In this document: positions 1,666 through 42,479 of the stretch, piece by piece
Layout of the letters: every line of letters begins with the position of its first letter
How positions within the stretch are numbered: position 1 is the first letter of the stretch
IMG/VR virus record: IMGVR_UViG_2939127364_000002
Direction: 5' to 3' (one strand)
DNA length: 42,479 nt
From: a virus
Lineage: Duplodnaviria > Heunggongvirae > Uroviricota > Caudoviricetes
Program-made: the position numbers and the translations under genes
Notes under the pieces: model-generated
Database searches by the model: none
What the model saw: only the letters and a program-made list of their open reading frames with translations
Told to the model about the DNA's origin: nothing

Positions 1666-2148
1666 TTATTTGATAAGAAGTGAAGGTTTCCCAACCTTGA
1701 GTTGAGCACCGGGGATATTTATTCCTGCTTTTAGTTGGTGTTTGATTGCCAGTTTGTCGGCTTTAATTGTCGTTTCAAACTCAACGTATTCAGGAGGAAG
1801 GGCGCTTGAGTCGATGATTTCTACAGTTTCTGACGGTTTGCGGATTGTTACCTGGTGAATACCTGCTCGAATCTTTTTCTTGCCAACCATTTCAAGCGAT
1901 GACGCTATATACGCCATAATGCTGTCAATCTTATTTTGAATTACTGCGGCTCTCTCATTTAGTGACTTTGCCTCTTCCTTGAGGCGTTCAGCATAACCAG
2001 ATTCATTTTTAATAATGGCGAGAAGTTGCTCTATTTTATCGGTAAATTCTCCTTCCATGCCTTCTATTGTGTCAGCAATCATCTCTGGCTCTAAATCTGA
2101 ATCCATCAATTTTGCGTATTCATTGGCTATTTCATATAGTTTGCTCAC
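1666..2148 (-). CDS. Recombination-associated protein, resembles Sipho_Gp157 family
   Basis: N-terminus VSKLYEIANEYAKLMD... and position immediately downstream of RecT; start moved to GTG 2148 with GGAGG 6 nt upstream. Confidence 0.45.
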   Translation of the reverse strand: MSKLYEIANEYAKLMDSDLEPEMIADTIEGMEGEFTDKIEQLLAIIKNESGYAERLKEEAKSLNERAAVIQNKIDSIMAYIASSLEMVGKKKIRAGIHQVTIRKPSETVEIIDSSALPPEYVEFETTIKADKLAIKHQLKAGINIPGAQLKVGKPSLLIK

Positions 2149-3043
2149 TGGCAACCTCCAGTTTCGCTTTGCATTCTATGTAAATGGCTTGTACGTTCTG
2201 CTGCAATTTCATTCCAGACGTCAGGCGATATGCTTCTGCAAAATATCGCTTCAAATCATCCATGTTTTCTGCCTGAGCCATTTCATCGCAAAGAAGTTGT
2301 ACTTTATCCATTATTTCCTGCTGGCGTTTCCGTTCATCTTCGCGGATATCTTCCTCTGATTTGTGCGGCATAACTGGTTCAGTCCACACACCTTCTTCTT
2401 CGTTTAGTACGTGAATAGCACTATCAAGACGTGATGCCTTAGGCCAATACTTGCTTGCACGCTTTACGACCGTCTTTCGCGCCATCTCATTCCAGTGATT
2501 TACCCATGGTCCTTTATCGCTGAATGCTGCCTTGCTTGTTTTCCTTACAGCCTCAATTTCAGCCAGACTCATCTCTTCCGTTAGATAATCACCTGCTGGC
2601 ATCTTAACTGTGCAGTAAACGCCAACGATATCACCACGATCACCGAAGGCGTTGTATTTATGGGTTGGTGCTTTATCAAGCCCGTTTGACTCATAGGTAT
2701 CGTTAGCATGAACAAGTTTTGCCTGACCCCATGAGATAACACCAGACTCCATTGCAATATGGAGCAATCCCATATAACTGATATCAAGGCACACCATGCC
2801 GTCGCGCGGAACCAGATAAGCCAGTTTGCTAGCTGGGTTTAAGGTGATGCCGATCGCCGCAACATTGATGATGGCGTTCTGTGCGCTGGTTGGATTTGCC
2901 AGTGCTGTTTTAGCCAGGTAATCGTTTTTCTGGAAATACTGAATTGCAAACTGGCTTTCCTTAGCCCATGTCACCGTCTGTTCAGTCAATGCTCCGCAGA
3001 ATAACTGCTCCTGCTGTTTAACGAATTCAACGATATTGCTCAT
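2132..3043 (-). CDS. recT: RecT-family single-strand annealing recombinase
   Basis: 303-aa ORF of typical RecT size and sequence character; GGAGAA RBS; sits in the recombination slot of the early-left operon. Confidence 0.7.
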   Translation of the reverse strand: MSNIVEFVKQQEQLFCGALTEQTVTWAKESQFAIQYFQKNDYLAKTALANPTSAQNAIINVAAIGITLNPASKLAYLVPRDGMVCLDISYMGLLHIAMESGVISWGQAKLVHANDTYESNGLDKAPTHKYNAFGDRGDIVGVYCTVKMPAGDYLTEEMSLAEIEAVRKTSKAAFSDKGPWVNHWNEMARKTVVKRASKYWPKASRLDSAIHVLNEEEGVWTEPVMPHKSEEDIREDERKRQQEIMDKVQLLCDEMAQAENMDDLKRYFAEAYRLTSGMKLQQNVQAIYIECKAKLEVASEQTI

Positions 3044-3351
3044 GCAGCTTCTCCAAAAATGTGTCTGCGTTTGAATATTGCGAAGGCATATTCAGCCTTA
3101 ACTCTTTCAGTTATTGCATCCCAGAACCATTCAGCGGCTTTTTCCTGATAGTTACAGTCATCATCTTCCAGCCAGTCGATAGCGTCCTTAGTGTGTTCAT
3201 CTGGTTTATATGAGCGAAGCATTTCGCTTATTGGGTCGCAACGTTTGCAGAGGCGATCAACTTCACTGTTGATTCGCTCGTAATCTTCATCAGTAAAACT
3301 TGCGATTATTTGCGATATTTCACGCTTATCATTCAGAGTCAGAATCATCAT
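3040..3351 (-). CDS. Hypothetical early protein (103 aa)
   Basis: Track ORF with AGGAG RBS 5 nt upstream of ATG; no family recognised. Confidence 0.5.
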   Translation of the reverse strand: MMILTLNDKREISQIIASFTDEDYERINSEVDRLCKRCDPISEMLRSYKPDEHTKDAIDWLEDDDCNYQEKAAEWFWDAITERVKAEYAFAIFKRRHIFGEAA

Positions 3352-3569
3352 CTTTCTCCTGTTCTTTGTGCTGATTGAGAATTTTGTTCATCTGACGAAT
3401 GAATTCTTCGTCTGACCAGTTATCTGTAAAACTCATTTCCTGCGATACCATGGAAGGTTGATAGCTGATTTCATCGCTTTATTTGCTTCAAGCCACATTT
3501 TGGAATCACCAATAAATCTGGCTATTACTGCTTTGTTTTGTGCTGCACGAAGCACCTGGTGATTGATGG

Positions 3570-3704
3570 CTATTTCATTGCGCATAACGCCTCCAGTTGT
3601 TTCTTTGCTGCTCTGATTAATTGTTTAACTCGGCGTGATAATTCAGATTCGTGCGGGTAGAAAGCGGACATGACGCCGCTACCCGCGAACTGAAAGTGCA
3701 TCAT
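3570..3704 (-). CDS. Hypothetical small protein (44 aa)
   Basis: MMHFQFAGSGVMSAFYPHESELSRRVKQ... with AAGGAG 7 nt upstream; the longer track ORF 3570..3809 would run through a terminator hairpin. Confidence 0.3.
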   Translation of the reverse strand: MMHFQFAGSGVMSAFYPHESELSRRVKQLIRAAKKQLEALCAMK

Positions 3705-3770
3705 GGGTAACTCCTTCTGTTTGATTACATAACGAAAACGCCTCAAGTGAAGCGTTATTGTTATGCATAT

Positions 3771-3794
3771 AAAAAAGCCCTCACACTGGAGGGC
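3771..3794 (-). terminator. Terminator-like hairpin within the early-left operon
   Basis: Minus-strand stem gccctc/gagggc with 6-nt loop followed by TTTTTT. Confidence 0.5.
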
Positions 3795-3912
3795 AAAGAA
3801 GATTTCCAATAATCAGAACAAGTCGGCTCCTGTTTAGTTACGAGCGACATTGCTCCGTGTATTCACTCGTTGGAATGAATACACAGTGCAGTGTTTATTC
3901 TGTTGTTTATGC

Positions 3913-3938
3913 CAAAAATAAAGGCCGACTATGCGGCC
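3913..3938 (-). terminator. Terminator-like hairpin directly after the 3939..4121 gene
   Basis: Minus-strand stem ggccg/cggcc with 6-nt loop followed by TTTATTTTTG. Confidence 0.5.
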
Positions 3939-4121
3939 TCAGAATGGTTTGTATCCATGTTTAAAGGCGAAATCGTATGCCTCATCATTAGTGCTGAAGT
4001 ATTCATAATCAGCAAATCCATCACGATAAAACTTGCAGCACCAATGAGGCGGAATGCCATCCTCATGACCATAGTCTTGATGGAACACATCCTCGACGAT
4101 GATATTTTCATCTTTTCCCAT
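3939..4121 (-). CDS. Hypothetical small acidic protein (60 aa)
   Basis: MGKDENIIVEDVFHQDYGHEDGIPPHWCCKFYRDGFADYEYF...; GAGGTGA RBS 4 nt upstream of ATG; rich in Asp/Glu and aromatics. Confidence 0.55.
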   Translation of the reverse strand: MGKDENIIVEDVFHQDYGHEDGIPPHWCCKFYRDGFADYEYFSTNDEAYDFAFKHGYKPF

Positions 4122-4183
4122 ATATCACCTCAAATAAGTGGTTTGCTGCCAAAACAATGAACCATCCGGAAATTCCAGATAGT

Positions 4184-4411
4184 TCATAATTCACTCTTCA
4201 ATACTTCCAGCTTACTAATCGCCGAAAGATATCCGCGCTGATAGGGCATCATCATTCCTTCGAGCTTGCCACTTCTTAACTCCTCCCTGAGCAATTGTAT
4301 TGCTTGATCAATAACCTCTGCCTTAGCGTCCTTTATGGCTTGCTTGCGGGGCTTTGCTTTCTGCTTTGGCAGATTTCTCAAGCATGATGGAATGTATGTC
4401 TGATTCATCAC
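4184..4411 (-). CDS. Hypothetical early protein (75 aa) immediately downstream of N
   Basis: Track ORF abutting the N stop codon; no family recognised. Confidence 0.5.
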   Translation of the reverse strand: MMNQTYIPSCLRNLPKQKAKPRKQAIKDAKAEVIDQAIQLLREELRSGKLEGMMMPYQRGYLSAISKLEVLKSEL

Positions 4412-4774
4412 TTACCTGGCTGTCAGTTGTTTTGATTTCCGGTATCCTGCCGCGTAAATGGCTACGTTTGGAAGACATACACCAGTTTCTGGTTGCTTAT
4501 GTCCAAACTCATTCGCGTACACAATGGCTGCTCTCTCCAGATTGCGTCTGTATTCTTTCTGTTGCCAGATCACGTCCTGTGCCATGAACTTAATTGGCTT
4601 AGCGTCTTCTATGCGCTCAGGCGTTTCGTGAGTACCTTTAGCCTGAATCTGCGCTCTGCTTAGAGTAGGGCGGTGTAATACTTCTGAGCTTGCCGTAATC
4701 TCATTCTGGAGCGCTGCACGACGCTCACGACGACGACCTGATGCTGAGCCATTGAAAGCTGTTCTGCGTGTCAT
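4412..4774 (-). CDS. N: N-like transcription antiterminator
   Basis: Arginine-rich N-terminus ...GRRRERRAALQ... resembles the lambda N arginine-rich motif; first gene left of the oL region; AGGAGG 7 nt upstream of ATG. Confidence 0.65.
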   Translation of the reverse strand: MTRRTAFNGSASGRRRERRAALQNEITASSEVLHRPTLSRAQIQAKGTHETPERIEDAKPIKFMAQDVIWQQKEYRRNLERAAIVYANEFGHKQPETGVCLPNVAIYAAGYRKSKQLTAR

Positions 4775-4877
4775 AGTGACCTCCTGATGAACTTTGGTGA
4801 TGCAATGGCCGGTGCTTATCTTCGGCTTGCCTCAACGGGCTGCATTTCATCGCATCCCAAAGTTCACTTTGGTTATT

Positions 4878-4891
4878 AGGCTTTTCAGCCT
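4878..4891 (-). promoter_or_regulatory. Candidate nutL boxB-like hairpin
   Basis: On the leftward transcript: CTACG then AGGCU-GAAA-AGCCU; same design as the hairpin at 7461..7474. Confidence 0.4.
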
Positions 4892-4961
4892 CGTAGATTC
4901 ATCTCTGAATCGTTGTATATTCACCGCCCTGGTGAGTAGTGCGTCCTGCTGATGGGTAAAC

Positions 4962-5005
4962 TTTATCGAAATGATAAATCAATGGCAATAGCAAAATGAT
5001 AAATT
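4962..5005. promoter_or_regulatory. oL/pL operator region
   Basis: Two copies of ATGATAAAT (4972..4980, 4996..5004) plus TTTATCG at 4962..4968; the same motif recurs at oR. Confidence 0.5.
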
Positions 5006-5217: not shown

Positions 5218-5838
5218 TTAATGCTGGGGAGTGATTTTTTTGTTGTCTGTTGGCTGGGTATTTTGTGGCGGCGCTTGCAAAGTGGAAGGCTGTTGCAAAG
5301 GTGCGTGGTCTGACTTTAAAGCTGATACCAGCCCGGGAATCGCAACTATTACAGCGATAATGACACTAAAAATGGCTAATCGTATAGAAATACCCGACTG
5401 AACACCACTAATTGCGGTATTAACCCCTGTTATTTGTCCTTGAATTCCTTCGAATCTCCCATTAATTGCTTTTATATCGCCAGCAGCGCTATCCATCTTT
5501 CCATCGATCTTGGACGATAGAGAGTTTATGGCTGCATTAAGTGATGCAAATTGGACATTAACGCTTTCACGAGATAGAGCCATGTCAGCCCTAATGGAAG
5601 AAGCAATAGACTCCATCTCTGCTTTATTAGCAGCTAAGCGAGCATCAAGTTCCTCTCTGCTGATCGTTCCCACTTCTTCCTCCGTTTGTGGCGGTTTTAT
5701 GTAATTATTTTGCACCTTGGTGGGAGAATTATCAAATTCAGCCTCAAAATAGGAACCGCCAACAACCTTCAACCTCCGGCTTTCAGATATGTTGGTGTCT
5801 TGCTTTCCATGATTATTTAAATTGCTGTCGTCACTCAT
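5218..5838 (-). CDS. Membrane-anchored coiled-coil protein of unknown function (206 aa), distal gene of the cI operon
   Basis: Polar N-terminus, heptad-like central region, single hydrophobic segment IRLAIFSVIIAVIVAIPGLVSAL near the C-terminus, Pro/Gln-rich tail; ATGA overlap with the upstream gene. Confidence 0.6.
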   Translation of the reverse strand: MSDDSNLNNHGKQDTNISESRRLKVVGGSYFEAEFDNSPTKVQNNYIKPPQTEEEVGTISREELDARLAANKAEMESIASSIRADMALSRESVNVQFASLNAAINSLSSKIDGKMDSAAGDIKAINGRFEGIQGQITGVNTAISGVQSGISIRLAIFSVIIAVIVAIPGLVSALKSDHAPLQQPSTLQAPPQNTQPTDNKKITPQH

Positions 5839-6269
5839 AATAGCTCTACGGTGAAAAATGATTCATTTTTATGAAGTTCATTTTTAGGGTCTTCATTATC
5901 CTGCAATATCCCTATAACACTATACAGCCCTTTAGCTGGGACCCTAATTTCTTTCAATGTTACTATTACCTGTCCGCCAACCCCTGTTTCAAAATGGCTA
6001 TCTTTCGTATCGATGAAAAGTGAAACTGATTCCGAAGAGCCGTCAGGGAATTGAATTTCCTCACCTTTTTTTATAATTAGGTGCGCGGGGATTACCATAA
6101 TACCCAAATTATATCTTGAATTTGGTTTCAACCCGATCATACCAACCCTGAAATCAATTGATAGCCGCGCAGGAAATTCATTGCATGTAAAATTAAGCGT
6201 CGGTTGGTTGGGTTCTTCGCTGCTATCAAATGGGGTTATAAAAGATATTCTTTCTAAATTAAGTGCCAT
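5835..6269 (-). CDS. Hypothetical soluble protein (about 144 aa) between cI and the membrane protein
   Basis: Start placed at ATG 6269 (MALNLERISF...) with AGGAG 5 nt upstream; track start 6323 has no good RBS; no family recognised. Confidence 0.55.
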   Translation of the reverse strand: MALNLERISFITPFDSSEEPNQPTLNFTCNEFPARLSIDFRVGMIGLKPNSRYNLGIMVIPAHLIIKKGEEIQFPDGSSESVSLFIDTKDSHFETGVGGQVIVTLKEIRVPAKGLYSVIGILQDNEDPKNELHKNESFFTVELL

Positions 6270-6370
6270 AAATTCTCCTGCATCGCTGTATGCTCTACGA
6301 GCATCTCGGCGACTTATCATCACCCAAACGTCTCTTCAGGCCACTGGCTACCAGCTATGTGACGATGAAG

Positions 6371-7075
6371 TCACGAATTTTTCAGCCACTCCCTTGCCTC
6401 GATGTCATCCAGATGGCGAGATTGCTTCAGAATACCAGCCACATACTCCACCTTTGCTACTTGATGATAAGGCAACGTTATAGGCCTGTGGTCCTGGTTA
6501 ATGCTTGTAAATTGGTATTCTCCATCTCTGTCATAGCCAAGAACCTTAATCATGTTGTGTCCTTCAACGGTTCTGACAAACACCTCATCACCCGGGAATA
6601 CTTTGGTGTTAGGCTCAATGAGTACATATTCTCCTGATTTTATTCTGGGCCACATGCTGTCTCCTTTCACACGAAGACCAAAGGCATCTGGATCATCGCT
6701 ATAAATTTTGAGCCACCCATCGCGCTCTTCGGTCATCTCGATGGCACCATCAACACCAAGAATTGCCTCACCAACCACGCGCACTAACCCTTTTCTTACC
6801 TGACCGACAAAAGTTAAAGAATCTGAGCATGATGCAATTGGTGTTACATCATGCACCAAATCAAGCCACCCATTAGGTAACCCAAGTGCGGCTTCAAATT
6901 TTCTTGCTAGTTTATCCCCTATGTTTCGAGTGCTTTTTTCACCGGAGACTTGCGTGAGTTGAGAAGGGCTAACCCCAAGCTTATCGGCAAAGCTTGCATT
7001 AGTGTTACCCGCGATTTTTTTATGCTCATCTAGCAAAAACGCTAGATTTGATTTGCGAATATCTTTGTTTTCCAT
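6371..7075 (-). CDS. cI: CI-type prophage repressor (HTH plus S24 LexA-like autopeptidase domain)
   Basis: N-terminal HTH ...SFADKLGVSPSQLTQV...; C-terminal ...GDSMWP... serine-lysine dyad signature; divergent from cro across the operator region. Confidence 0.9.
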   Translation of the reverse strand: MENKDIRKSNLAFLLDEHKKIAGNTNASFADKLGVSPSQLTQVSGEKSTRNIGDKLARKFEAALGLPNGWLDLVHDVTPIASCSDSLTFVGQVRKGLVRVVGEAILGVDGAIEMTEERDGWLKIYSDDPDAFGLRVKGDSMWPRIKSGEYVLIEPNTKVFPGDEVFVRTVEGHNMIKVLGYDRDGEYQFTSINQDHRPITLPYHQVAKVEYVAGILKQSRHLDDIEAREWLKNS

Positions 7076-40077: not shown

Positions 40078-41235
40078 CTATGACACCTTCTCATCAAGCC
40101 AATCCGCCCACCACTGCATCATTTCTCTGCGCTTATCGAGATACTGAGCATGGTTGTAAATTCCACGTACAGATCCGCCGTTGGCATGTGCCAGTTGCAC
40201 TTCAATGGCGTCGGCAGGCCATTCGTGCTCGTTCATAATCGTGCTGAATTCATGCCTGAATCCGTGACCGCTTTCCAGACCTTCATAGCCGATTTGTTTG
40301 ATCACAAGCAATACCGCGTTCTCGCAGATTGGCTTCTTCTTATCGTTGCGCCCGGCAAAAACAAACTCTGAGACTGGTTTGGTGATTGAGCTTAGCGTAG
40401 TGAGAAGTTCAACCACCTGGTCTGACATCGGGACCACATGAATTTTGCGTCCCTTCATCACACTGGCGTCGATGGTGATAATCCTGTTTTCAAAATCGAC
40501 GTTCTTCCATAGCATGGAACGAAGCTCTTTCGTTCTTAGGGCTGTATAACGTAAAACTTTTGTCGCAATGAGCGATACGATACTTCCTGAAAATGTTGCC
40601 AGTGCTTTGTTGAATGCAGGGATCTGGTCTGCTGGAAGGAACGGGAAGTTCTTCTTGCGGTATCCCTTCATGGCGTCAGCAAGGTCAGGTGCCGGGTTAT
40701 ATTTAGCCCTACCAGTGACAATAGCGTAACGGAAAACCTCGCCGCATCTTCTGCGGGCTTTGTTGGCTCGCTCCATTGCACCGCGATCTTCAAATCTGCG
40801 GATTACTTCCAGCAGTTGCATCGGCTCAATATCCTGAATTTCAAGGCCGCCGATGATGGGTAAAATGTCGTCATCAAACATTTTTGCAAGTTCATTTGCA
40901 TAGCCTACTGACCAGACTTGCTTCTTGTGCTCGTACCATTCCTTGTAAATGGCGCTAAAGGAATTGTTGTTAGACGAAGTCTTTTTCGCTTTTACCGGAT
41001 CGATACCAACCGAGATGTCTTTCCTCGCGGTCCATGCTTTATCCCTTGCCTCCTGCAAAGTCATAAGCGGATATTTTCCGACGGTCAGGATTTTCTCCTT
41101 ACCGTCAATCTTGTAGCGAAGCTGCCATACCTTTTTCCCGGATACAGGAACATAAAGGTACAGGCCATTACCATCGAGAAGGCGGTATGGTTTTTCTTTC
41201 GGCTTTGCTGCTTCAATCTGCTTAACGGTGAGCAT
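40078..41235 (-). CDS. intS: Tyrosine integrase, IntS-like
   Basis: MLTVKQIEAAKPKEKPYRLLDGNGLYLYV... recognised as the CPS-53/KplE1 integrase; start placed at ATG 41235 rather than track start 41271; adjacent to argW. Confidence 0.9.
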   Translation of the reverse strand: MLTVKQIEAAKPKEKPYRLLDGNGLYLYVPVSGKKVWQLRYKIDGKEKILTVGKYPLMTLQEARDKAWTARKDISVGIDPVKAKKTSSNNNSFSAIYKEWYEHKKQVWSVGYANELAKMFDDDILPIIGGLEIQDIEPMQLLEVIRRFEDRGAMERANKARRRCGEVFRYAIVTGRAKYNPAPDLADAMKGYRKKNFPFLPADQIPAFNKALATFSGSIVSLIATKVLRYTALRTKELRSMLWKNVDFENRIITIDASVMKGRKIHVVPMSDQVVELLTTLSSITKPVSEFVFAGRNDKKKPICENAVLLVIKQIGYEGLESGHGFRHEFSTIMNEHEWPADAIEVQLAHANGGSVRGIYNHAQYLDKRREMMQWWADWLDEKVS

Positions 41236-41281
41236 GGGTAAAAATCCGGTGGGTAAAATTATTTTATCCACTTTTTACCCG
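41236..41281. promoter_or_regulatory. Cluster of GGGTAAAA / TTTTACCC 8-mers upstream of intS (candidate recombination-protein binding sites)
   Basis: GGGTAAAA at 41236..41243 and 41251..41258, inverted TTTTACCC at 41273..41280. Confidence 0.35.
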
Positions 41282-41396
41282 TCATGGAGTGCGGCTGTCA
41301 ACGATCTGACGCGAACCATGACGAACCGTGAATATACGGAAGGCTTGATATTCAGGGGATTTTGCGGACTGGTACGGATGGGAGCGAACTGATAAA

Positions 41397-41471
41397 TGGT
41401 GTCCCCTGCAGGAATCGAACCTGCAATTAGCCCTTAGGAGGGGCTCGTTATATCCATTTAACTAAGAGGAC
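41397..41471 (-). tRNA. argW: tRNA-Arg (anticodon CCU)
   Basis: 75-nt cloverleaf GTCCTCTTAGTTAAATGGATATAACGAGCCCCTCCTAAGGGCTAATTGCAGGTTCGATTCCTGCAGGGGACACCA with anticodon CCT and encoded CCA. Confidence 0.9.
41411..41426. repeat. att core copy within the argW T-arm
   Basis: Exact 16-bp match to 221..236. Confidence 0.6.
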
Positions 41472-41546
41472 AATGCGGCATGAGTATACCCGCTAATGGA
41501 GTGCGGGGTAAGTACGCTGCCGCTCGATTGCTTAAACCCTCGCCAT

Positions 41547-42479
41547 TTATGCCGGGTTTTTATAATTTTTCTTAATGTTTTCCGCACGTTCTGCTTTTTG
41601 GCGTGCTTCTGCTTTACGCTTATTGCTCATGTCGTTACGAATCTGTGCATGACTCATTAACGCGAAGATAAAGGTGCCGCCGCAGATGTTCCCCGCTAAA
41701 GTAGGTAGTGCGAAGGGCCAGATGAAATCGCTCCAGTGCAGCGTACCGTTAAACACCAGATAGAGGATTTCAACAGAACCGACCACGATATGGGTGGTGT
41801 CACCCAGGGCAATAAGCCAGGTCATCAATATAATCACCACAATCTTTGCCGCACCCGCTGCAGGAAACATCCAAACCATAGTGGCGATCAGCCAGCCGGA
41901 AATGATCGCGTTGGCAAACATCTCGCTGGGGGTGTTTTTCATCACATCCATGCCGATTTTGACAAATGCATCGCGAGTTTCTTCATTGAAGATAGGCATA
42001 TATTCAAATGCCCACGCCGCAATACCTGTCCCGAGAATATTACCCAGCAGCACGACGCCCCATAACCGTATAAGTAAGCCGACGTTGCTCATTGTCGGTT
42101 TTTGCATGACGGGTAGTACCGCAGTCACGGTATTTTCGGTAAATAATTGCTGGCGGGCCATAATGACGATAATAAAACCAAAGGTATAACCGAGATTCTC
42201 CAGCAAGAAGCTGCCCGGCACACCTTCCAGTTCGACTTGAAATATCCCTTTTGCCAGTAACGAAGCGCCCATCGACAGACCCGCCGCAATGGCTGACCAC
42301 AGTAGCGCCACTGCGTCGCGTTCCAGCTCTTTTTCACCATCCTGGCGGATATGCTCATGAATTGCCATCGCCCGGGAGGGGAGTCGGTCTTCATCTATTT
42401 CTATTTTTTTGCCGCGCTCTTTTTCTTCGCTCTCAACTTCAATTTCGTCGCTGTGTTGATCAATTTTGTCGTTGTCCAT
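41547..42479 (-). CDS. yfdC: Inner-membrane formate/nitrite-transporter-family protein
   Basis: 310-aa ORF MDNDKIDQHSDEIEVESEEKERGKKIEIDEDR... recognised as YfdC, the gene next to argW in E. coli; its start codon is the last 3 bases of the window. Confidence 0.85.
   Translation of the reverse strand: MDNDKIDQHSDEIEVESEEKERGKKIEIDEDRLPSRAMAIHEHIRQDGEKELERDAVALLWSAIAAGLSMGASLLAKGIFQVELEGVPGSFLLENLGYTFGFIIVIMARQQLFTENTVTAVLPVMQKPTMSNVGLLIRLWGVVLLGNILGTGIAAWAFEYMPIFNEETRDAFVKIGMDVMKNTPSEMFANAIISGWLIATMVWMFPAAGAAKIVVIILMTWLIALGDTTHIVVGSVEILYLVFNGTLHWSDFIWPFALPTLAGNICGGTFIFALMSHAQIRNDMSNKRKAEARQKAERAENIKKNYKNPA

Follow-up and report, generated by a model that had tools for sequence, protein, structure and literature searches.

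The cluster of hairpins that lies between a 60-aa open reading frame (ORF) and cIII on the leftward early transcript is very probably, judging from its similarity to lambda, a prophage copy of the lambda PreS (LPR1) module within an N-dependent early-left operon. We regard the region as a real element, predicted by homology to be functional and already known as lambda tL2a together with PreS/LPR1. Coordinates refer to the window, the whole stretch of 42,479 nucleotides that was analysed, and the features of its early-left region described below are on the minus strand.

Gene context of the hairpin region

The window represents a mosaic lambdoid element of E. coli of the HK022/HK97/mEp type. 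From right to left along the minus strand, PHROG searches identified a CI-type repressor (6371..7075), two genes without assigned function (5835..6323 and 5218..5838), an N-like antiterminator gene (4412..4774; phrog_271, E = 1.3e-38), a 75-aa ORF (4184..4411), the 60-aa ORF, whose function is unassigned and which adjoins the sRNA element on its upstream side (3939..4121; phrog_37822, E = 1.7e-44), cIII (3570..3704, 44 aa; phrog_550, CIII, E = 7.2e-13), kil (3433..3585) and a RecT recombinase (2132..3043). A Shine-Dalgarno sequence for cIII (AAGGAG) was read at 3715..3710. Between the repressor block and the N-like gene we observed a candidate pL from the promoter scan (TTGCCA-17-TAAAGT, 4988..4960) and, by sequence reading, a candidate boxB-like hairpin with a GAAA tetraloop (AGGCTGAAAAGCCT, 4891..4878), both recognised by their resemblance to the consensus. 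Since the N-like gene lies upstream of the hairpins in the same leftward operon, and cIII, kil and RecT lie downstream on the same strand, the hairpin region sits on the N-dependent early-left transcript.

Repeated operator-like words (TTATCATTT) were also observed around the candidate pL (4878..4988). A further terminator-like hairpin, with 14 pairs and the tail TGTTTTGG, was found between the 75-aa and 60-aa ORFs (4157..4187), and is yet another potential stop in the leftward operon upstream of the sRNA locus. Elsewhere in the window (40078..42479), we recognised a host junction at an argW-like site from a tyrosine integrase (40078..41271, minus strand), a tRNA-Arg(CCU) (41397..41471, minus strand) and a formate/nitrite-transporter-family gene (41547 onward). 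The integrase adjoins tail-fibre genes and not the early-left genes, which is unexpected for the order of a simple lambda-type prophage.

Reality of the hairpins

Read along the minus strand, the region presents the stop codon of the 60-aa ORF, a hairpin, an A-rich spacer, a 9-bp stem, a 62-nt stretch, a GC hairpin, a fourth hairpin and cIII. The preliminary description had placed three hairpins here, and all three were recovered on the minus strand with coordinates good to within 2 nt. The perfect 9-bp stem was present as described, with 3884..3876 (GTGTATTCA) paired to 3865..3857 (TGAATACAC) around a 10-nt loop (TTCCAACGAG), while the fourth, terminator-like hairpin, in the cIII leader, had been absent from that account. 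The hairpin cluster exceeds chance. The consensus scan found five terminator-like sites within 3000..5000, compared with 1.5 +/- 1.0 in shuffled sequences, and three of the four hairpins scored as terminator-like, all on the minus strand. Individual hairpins had folding energies with z-scores from -3.3 to -7.0 relative to shuffles, and the whole 242-nt intergenic RNA folded at -84.3 kcal/mol (shuffles -53.3 +/- 4.1, z = -7.5).

Identity with lambda PreS

A blastn search of 3700..3960 against phage records returned 372 records, 317 of them at 95-99% identity, with matches that included lambda, HK022-like phages, Sf6, Stx phages and Salmonella phages. Approximately 150 nt aligned to the lambda ral–ea10 interval with one mismatch, the identity running from GGCCTTTATTTTTGGC to GAGGGC. 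In lambda, an Hfq-dependent sRNA named LPR1, and later renamed PreS, is encoded between ea10 and ral, with tL2a supplying the termination site that forms its 3' end (Silverman et al., bioRxiv 10.1101/2024.10.31.621285). These authors observed PreS enriched on Hfq and expressed in lytic but not lysogenic growth, as bands of ~88 and ~68 nt, with the ~88 nt form processed to the ~68 nt form. They further reported that PreS opens the ribosome-binding site of dnaN and so activates its translation, about 4-fold and dependent on the seed, with compensatory mutations and structure probing as evidence, that it represses alaS, and that full lambda DNA replication and full phage yield upon spontaneous induction require it (bioRxiv 10.1101/2024.10.31.621285).

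We mapped the PreS boundaries from the published deletion and T7 primers (Table S5 of Silverman et al.), which placed a homologue of 86 nt (GGAGCAAUGUCGCUCGUAACUAAACAGGAGCCGACUUGUUCUGAUUAUUGGAAAUCUUCUUUGCCCUCCAGUGUGAGGGCUUUUUU) at 3856..3771, with one copy in the window. Position +1 is 3856, the base just after the 9-bp stem and the first G of GGAGCAATGTCGC, and the RNA ends at 3771, in the U tract that follows GAGGGC. The +1 sequence (GGAGCAATG) and the seed (TGTTCTGATTATTGGAA) are both identical between lambda and the window, as are positions +1..+80 through the terminator stem. The difference is confined to the tail, which is TTTTTT in the window and GATTTTTT in lambda, the window being without lambda's GA spacer. 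The copy thus lies above the limit of 92% identity to lambda LPR1 that the preprint applied; it is located on the early-left transcribed strand, downstream of N and upstream of cIII, ends in a GC-rich terminator hairpin with a U tail (3794..3771), and carries a seed that is the same as in lambda and complementary to the dnaN leader. It is from this sequence identity that we would transfer the function of lambda PreS to the window copy. The suggestion, made in the preliminary description, of a processing or sRNA element was therefore well founded, the terminator at 3794..3771 corresponding to the 3' end of PreS/LPR1.

The block is widespread. It was found in 414 phage records, and as a 155-nt segment in 2239 of 5426 complete E. 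coli genomes, with up to 6 copies per genome; among the matches listed for E. coli genomes, none had an RNA annotation on the block. The 2,537 genomes reported with LPR1 (bioRxiv 10.1101/2024.10.31.621285) are in line with these counts. Rfam 15 gave no family match at the gathering score and none that was meaningful at permissive thresholds; matches in 3500..4200 were at chance level (E at or above 0.3), and the P22 variant described below had no match. The hairpin sequences as literal strings were not found in the literature searched, and a literature word search for tL2a/tL2b returned unrelated papers only. A prior name in the EHEC Hfq-CRAC catalogue (Tree et al. 2014, EcOnc01-64) was considered and rejected: there was no peak at the Sakai Sp5 copy (~1,254,626), and EcOnc22 (tail genes) and EcOnc20 (N leader) lie elsewhere. 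The lack of an EcOnc peak at this copy is expected, because that work used lysogenic cultures.

Terminators flanking the sRNA

The intrinsic terminator at 3794..3771 was identified by consensus scan, folding and alignment to lambda, and consists of GCCCTC-CAGTGT-GAGGGC (3794..3777) followed by TTTTTT (3776..3771), with a folding energy of -11.1 kcal/mol (z = -3.8). It is a homologous stem-loop with a T-tract on the pL-transcribed strand, and the Sf6 GenBank record marks the homologous block as 'terminator; homology to phage lambda; tL2A'. It is the homologue in sequence of lambda tL2a, a termination site of the N-controlled early-left operon, and by the same homology it would also be the Hfq-binding 3' end of PreS. 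Its predicted role is consequently a dual one, as a stop for N-modified polymerase to pass toward cIII, kil and recT and as the terminator and U-tail module of the sRNA. Homology to lambda stops exactly at the terminator stem, and the next module starts right after it.

The upstream hairpin (3940..3914), found by consensus scan and folding, is terminator-like, with a 7-bp stem in GAGGCCG-CATAGT-CGGCCTT (3940..3921) followed by TATTTTT (3920..3914), and folds at -10.9 kcal/mol (z = -3.3). The stem overlaps the TGA stop (3941..3939) of the 60-aa ORF. The conserved block contributes its 3' arm and T-tract, while the 5' arm is supplied by whichever gene is upstream. The counterpart of this hairpin is weak in lambda, mismatched in several phages, missing where the upstream gene reaches the GAATAAGCAC motif, and swapped for an unrelated terminator in one locus. 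It is the terminator of the upstream gene, and a variable feature.

The three hairpins had been proposed to form a series of terminators that the N-like protein overrides. This stood for 3794..3771, with its homology to lambda tL2a and the N-like gene upstream, but failed for the middle hairpin, which has no T-tract and was rejected as a terminator; the terminator and sRNA readings of the preliminary description both hold at once. A stricter form, in which the hairpins are only a tL2-type cluster of tandem early-left terminators that make the delayed-early genes N-dependent, with no trans-acting RNA, is very unlikely. Such a cluster would agree with the three T-tract hairpins observed within 210 nt of the transcribed strand, as well as with the homology of the block to tL2a downstream of an N-like gene. 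It leaves unexplained, however, why conservation across the 60 nt that separate helix and terminator equals that of the terminator, why the seed has 11-12-nt perfect complements in dnaN, and why the middle hairpin is without a T-tract, and it does not predict the Hfq binding, seed-dependent regulation and phage phenotype found in lambda experiments (bioRxiv 10.1101/2024.10.31.621285). Tandem termination is in any case compatible with the presence of PreS and is not a true alternative to it.

Seed region and pairing with dnaN

The seed and target-pairing region of the PreS copy (3821..3795) was defined by the published seed deletion and by dnaN complementarity. The deletion covers TGTTCTGATTATTGGAA, at 3820..3804 of the window (primers P970/P971). 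We used the dnaA–dnaN junction of E. coli K-12 as the pairing target, and its dnaN leader contains a 12-nt perfect complement at -47 (CAAAGAAGATTT) and an 11-nt complement at -27 (TAATCAGAACA). PreS positions 36-62 paired with dnaN -47..-16 at -25.9 kcal/mol, compared with -12.3 +/- 2.5 for shuffled targets, none of which (0/1000) were as stable. This analysis of the seed region was used in place of a duplex prediction for whole-length PreS with dnaN, which ignores intramolecular structure and was uninformative. The computed pairing agrees with the published mechanism and is unchanged for the window copy.

The exact 30-nt segment of the dnaN leader that pairs with PreS was observed in representative genomes of Escherichia, Shigella, Enterobacter hormaechei, Pseudocitrobacter and Mixta theicola. 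No Salmonella match to this E. coli 30-mer was found in the scan of representative genomes; lambda-type PreS copies were nevertheless found in Salmonella phages.

A covarying helix encloses the 5' end

The middle hairpin, identified by folding, inverted repeat and covariation, is the core of a longer helix (3894..3847), with the perfect 9-bp stem at 3884..3857 at its centre. It folds as a 14-bp stem at -18.8 kcal/mol (z = -7.0, with 0/200 shuffles as stable), and the last two of these pairs use PreS +1 and +2. An imperfect inverted repeat extends the arms to 22 nt (3894..3873 and 3868..3847, 82% complementary) and reaches PreS +10. Because the helix extends past +1, the PreS 5' end lies inside the 3' strand of a long precursor helix. 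On the 5' side, the A-rich spacer carries GAATAAACAC at 3900..3891, an instance of the conserved motif GAATAARCAC that was present in all hairpin and body classes; the TAA of this motif is the stop codon of the upstream gene in P22 and many loci.

A helix was present at this position in all 119 related loci (IMG/VR scan with GAGCAATRTCGCTCGTAAC, and reference phages), in four unrelated versions: GTGTATTCA/TGAATACAC, AGCAGA/TCTGCT, AATGCGGA/TTCCGCATT and AATGACCA/TGGTCATT. Within an alignment of 10 distinct helix versions, 94.2% of cells paired, compared with 24-49% when the partner was slid. Both sides had changed in 8 of the 16 helix pairs, and the covariation score was 0.60, compared with 0.17 in shuffles (0/500 shuffles). 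The U.G pairs of the helix are valid on the transcribed strand only, and together with the covariation this indicates that the helix structure is under selection at the RNA level. We infer that the helix helps to excise or to stabilise the sRNA, or the end of the upstream mRNA. The covarying helix containing PreS +1 is a modest addition to the preprint, which leaves the role of the helix undiscussed (bioRxiv 10.1101/2024.10.31.621285).

Modular structure of the family

The locus was found to be mosaic, with helix types A-D, body types a (lambda), b (P22) and c, and terminator types 1-3. The combinations observed were Aa1, Ba1, Ab2, Bb2, Ac2, Ac3, Bc2, Bc3, Cc2, Cc3, Dc2, Dc3 and Aa2, so that helix, body/seed and terminator types reassort almost freely (IMG/VR loci L008-L127, e.g. 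L012, L015, L024, L036, L047, L055 and L073). The joints between modules fall in shared motifs (GAATAARCAC, GAGCAATRTCGCTCGTAAC and the GTTCTGRTTA seed core), and the free reassortment fits crossovers within them.

Phage P22 (BK000583.1, L006 1480..1605, plus strand of the locus) carries an unannotated, diverged PreS-like unit of type b2 between orf87 and gene 17. This unit has the helix AGCAGA/TCTGCT, the seed GUUCUGGUUAUUGGAG and a different terminator (GCCGC.../GCGGC with a T-tract), and is ~80% identical over the body. The P22-type seeds were GUUCUGGUUAUUGGAG and GUUCUGGUUAAUCGAA. When body types b and c were paired with the same dnaN leader segment, both gave approximately -30 kcal/mol, with 4/500 and 2/500 shuffles as good. 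The 92% identity cut-off of the preprint leaves out these diverged b and c copies, and the modular locus with its P22-type variants goes modestly beyond that work (bioRxiv 10.1101/2024.10.31.621285).

The Sf6 record also marks the block as 'bsq4; boundary sequence', a concept attributed to Clark et al. 2001 in PMC3029335. It is conceivable on this basis that the block is kept as a shared linker for the exchange of lambdoid modules by homologous recombination, with incidental hairpins. Consistent with this, the block is a conserved non-coding stretch between non-homologous gene modules: flanking genes vary among phages while it stays 95-100% identical, and homology stops exactly at the terminator stem, and on the upstream side either inside the first hairpin or after it. 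Were the block a recombination linker and nothing more, however, there would be no reason to expect that replaced stems are fully compensated, that G.U pairs are valid on the transcribed strand only, or that diverged body types keep their complementarity to the dnaN leader, and the lambda phenotype would be left unexplained. We consider a pure linker highly improbable as the whole account, although boundary and sRNA roles can coexist, and the mosaic pattern explains the earlier 'boundary sequence' label.

With PreS as the preferred reading, a broader proposal can be offered tentatively, as one that may well not hold in full. The middle hairpin would be a hitherto undescribed, obligatory maturation module, a helix of 15-22 bp that encloses the sRNA 5' end and guides the cutting of the sRNA out of the pL transcript, with RNase III as the obvious candidate for the cut. 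PreS would belong to a modular family of at least four helix types, at least three body/seed types and three terminator types, including the unannotated P22-type variants, whose diverged seeds would still target the host dnaN leader.

The cIII-leader hairpin

The fourth hairpin (3765..3728) was found by consensus scan, folding and inverted repeat. Its core, AACGCTTC-ACTT-GAGGCGTT (3756..3737), is followed by TTCGTT (to 3731), and the structure extends to an imperfect, long bipartite helix whose 18-nt arms are 83% complementary, with a T-rich tail. Lambda has this sequence as well, downstream of ea10 and ahead of cIII. The hairpin may be the region known as tL2b/RNase III in older work on lambda.

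Translation of lambda cIII depends on leader structure and RNase III, and in the window the terminator T-tract is just 66 nt from the cIII start codon (3704), with a long hairpin of its own in front of cIII. These observations would suit a cis-acting leader that controls cIII, for instance through RNase III processing or alternative structures. The block is nonetheless separated from cIII by ea10 in lambda, gene 33 in Sf6 and gene 17 in P22 (~0.4-1 kb), so adjacency to cIII is not conserved, and the leader hairpin is conserved as a unit of its own, which in lambda comes after ea10. We therefore find a cIII leader scarcely credible as the explanation of the block, and retain PreS.

For mEpX1 (NC_019709.1, L001 2652..2927), the cIII CDS in RefSeq is 91 aa long; it begins upstream of a tL2a-type terminator that the record itself annotates, and continues across it. 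The start has probably been placed too far upstream. In the window, a TTG ORF at 3570..3809 corresponds to this long mEpX1 cIII.

Proposed mechanism and biogenesis

Homology and computation indicate that the leftward transcript from the immunity region passes the N-like gene, the 60-aa ORF and the hairpin at 3940..3914, then forms the long helix (3894..3847), followed by the 86-nt sRNA body (3856..3771) that ends in the tL2a-type terminator. If the window copy behaves as in lambda, the RNA would accumulate in the lytic cycle only, as ~88 and ~68 nt forms, and would bind Hfq via the terminator and U tail. The seed UGUUCUGAUUAUUGGAAAUCUUCUUU would pair with the host dnaN leader, open the ribosome-binding site and raise the level of beta clamp, which would favour phage DNA replication; alaS would be repressed as well.

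No sigma-70-like promoter was found by promoter scan between 3940 and 3856, and a promoter of its own for the sRNA was rejected, as TTGGCA at 3915..3910 is without a -10 at usable spacing. Many loci without the whole 3940..3914 region still keep the sRNA. Taken together with the lytic-only expression in lambda, these observations favour processing from the pL transcript, and the sRNA would then be cut from it without its own promoter, its 5' end being made by cleavage within the upstream helix or at its base. Neither point, as we infer them here, is addressed by the preprint (bioRxiv 10.1101/2024.10.31.621285). With the well-formed terminator at 3940..3914 upstream, unmodified polymerase may rarely reach the sRNA, and N-modified polymerase should pass tL2a and would continue into cIII, kil and the recombination genes. 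Given both the strong upstream terminator and this read-through, the 3' end would come from incomplete antitermination, with a fraction of polymerases stopping at tL2a, or from trimming back to the hairpin.

Comparison with known systems

The window copy shares with lambda PreS/LPR1 the sequence from +1 through the terminator stem, the seed, the upstream helix and the position in an N-dependent leftward operon. It differs in having the 60-aa ORF in place of ral and cIII in place of ea10, in an RNA of 86 nt compared with 88 nt, and in a stronger upstream terminator hairpin. The terminator matches lambda tL2a in stem-loop, strand and operon, but differs in the context of the T-tract and in joining directly to the cIII leader. 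The lambdoid bsq4 of the Sf6 annotation is the same DNA block, with a label that describes an evolutionary role and not a molecular product.

DicF of the Qin prophage is another Hfq-dependent sRNA excised from a polycistronic immunity-region transcript that acts on an essential host gene. DicF represses ftsZ, whereas PreS activates dnaN, and the sequences are unrelated. In Stx phages, the sRNA StxS arises from termination at tR' downstream of pR' (PMC7547250). The logic is the same, in that an antiterminator-controlled terminator yields an Hfq-binding regulatory RNA as a by-product, but StxS belongs to the late operon under Q, starts at a promoter instead of by processing, and has unrelated sequence and targets (PMC7547250).

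An intergenic stretch without annotation is thus, by homology, a likely phage regulator of the host replication clamp. The analysis places the sRNA precisely in a phage without lambda's flanking genes, which is useful for annotation and is not a discovery. The covarying precursor helix, the reassortment of modules and the P22-type copies could guide work on the biogenesis and diversification of this sRNA.
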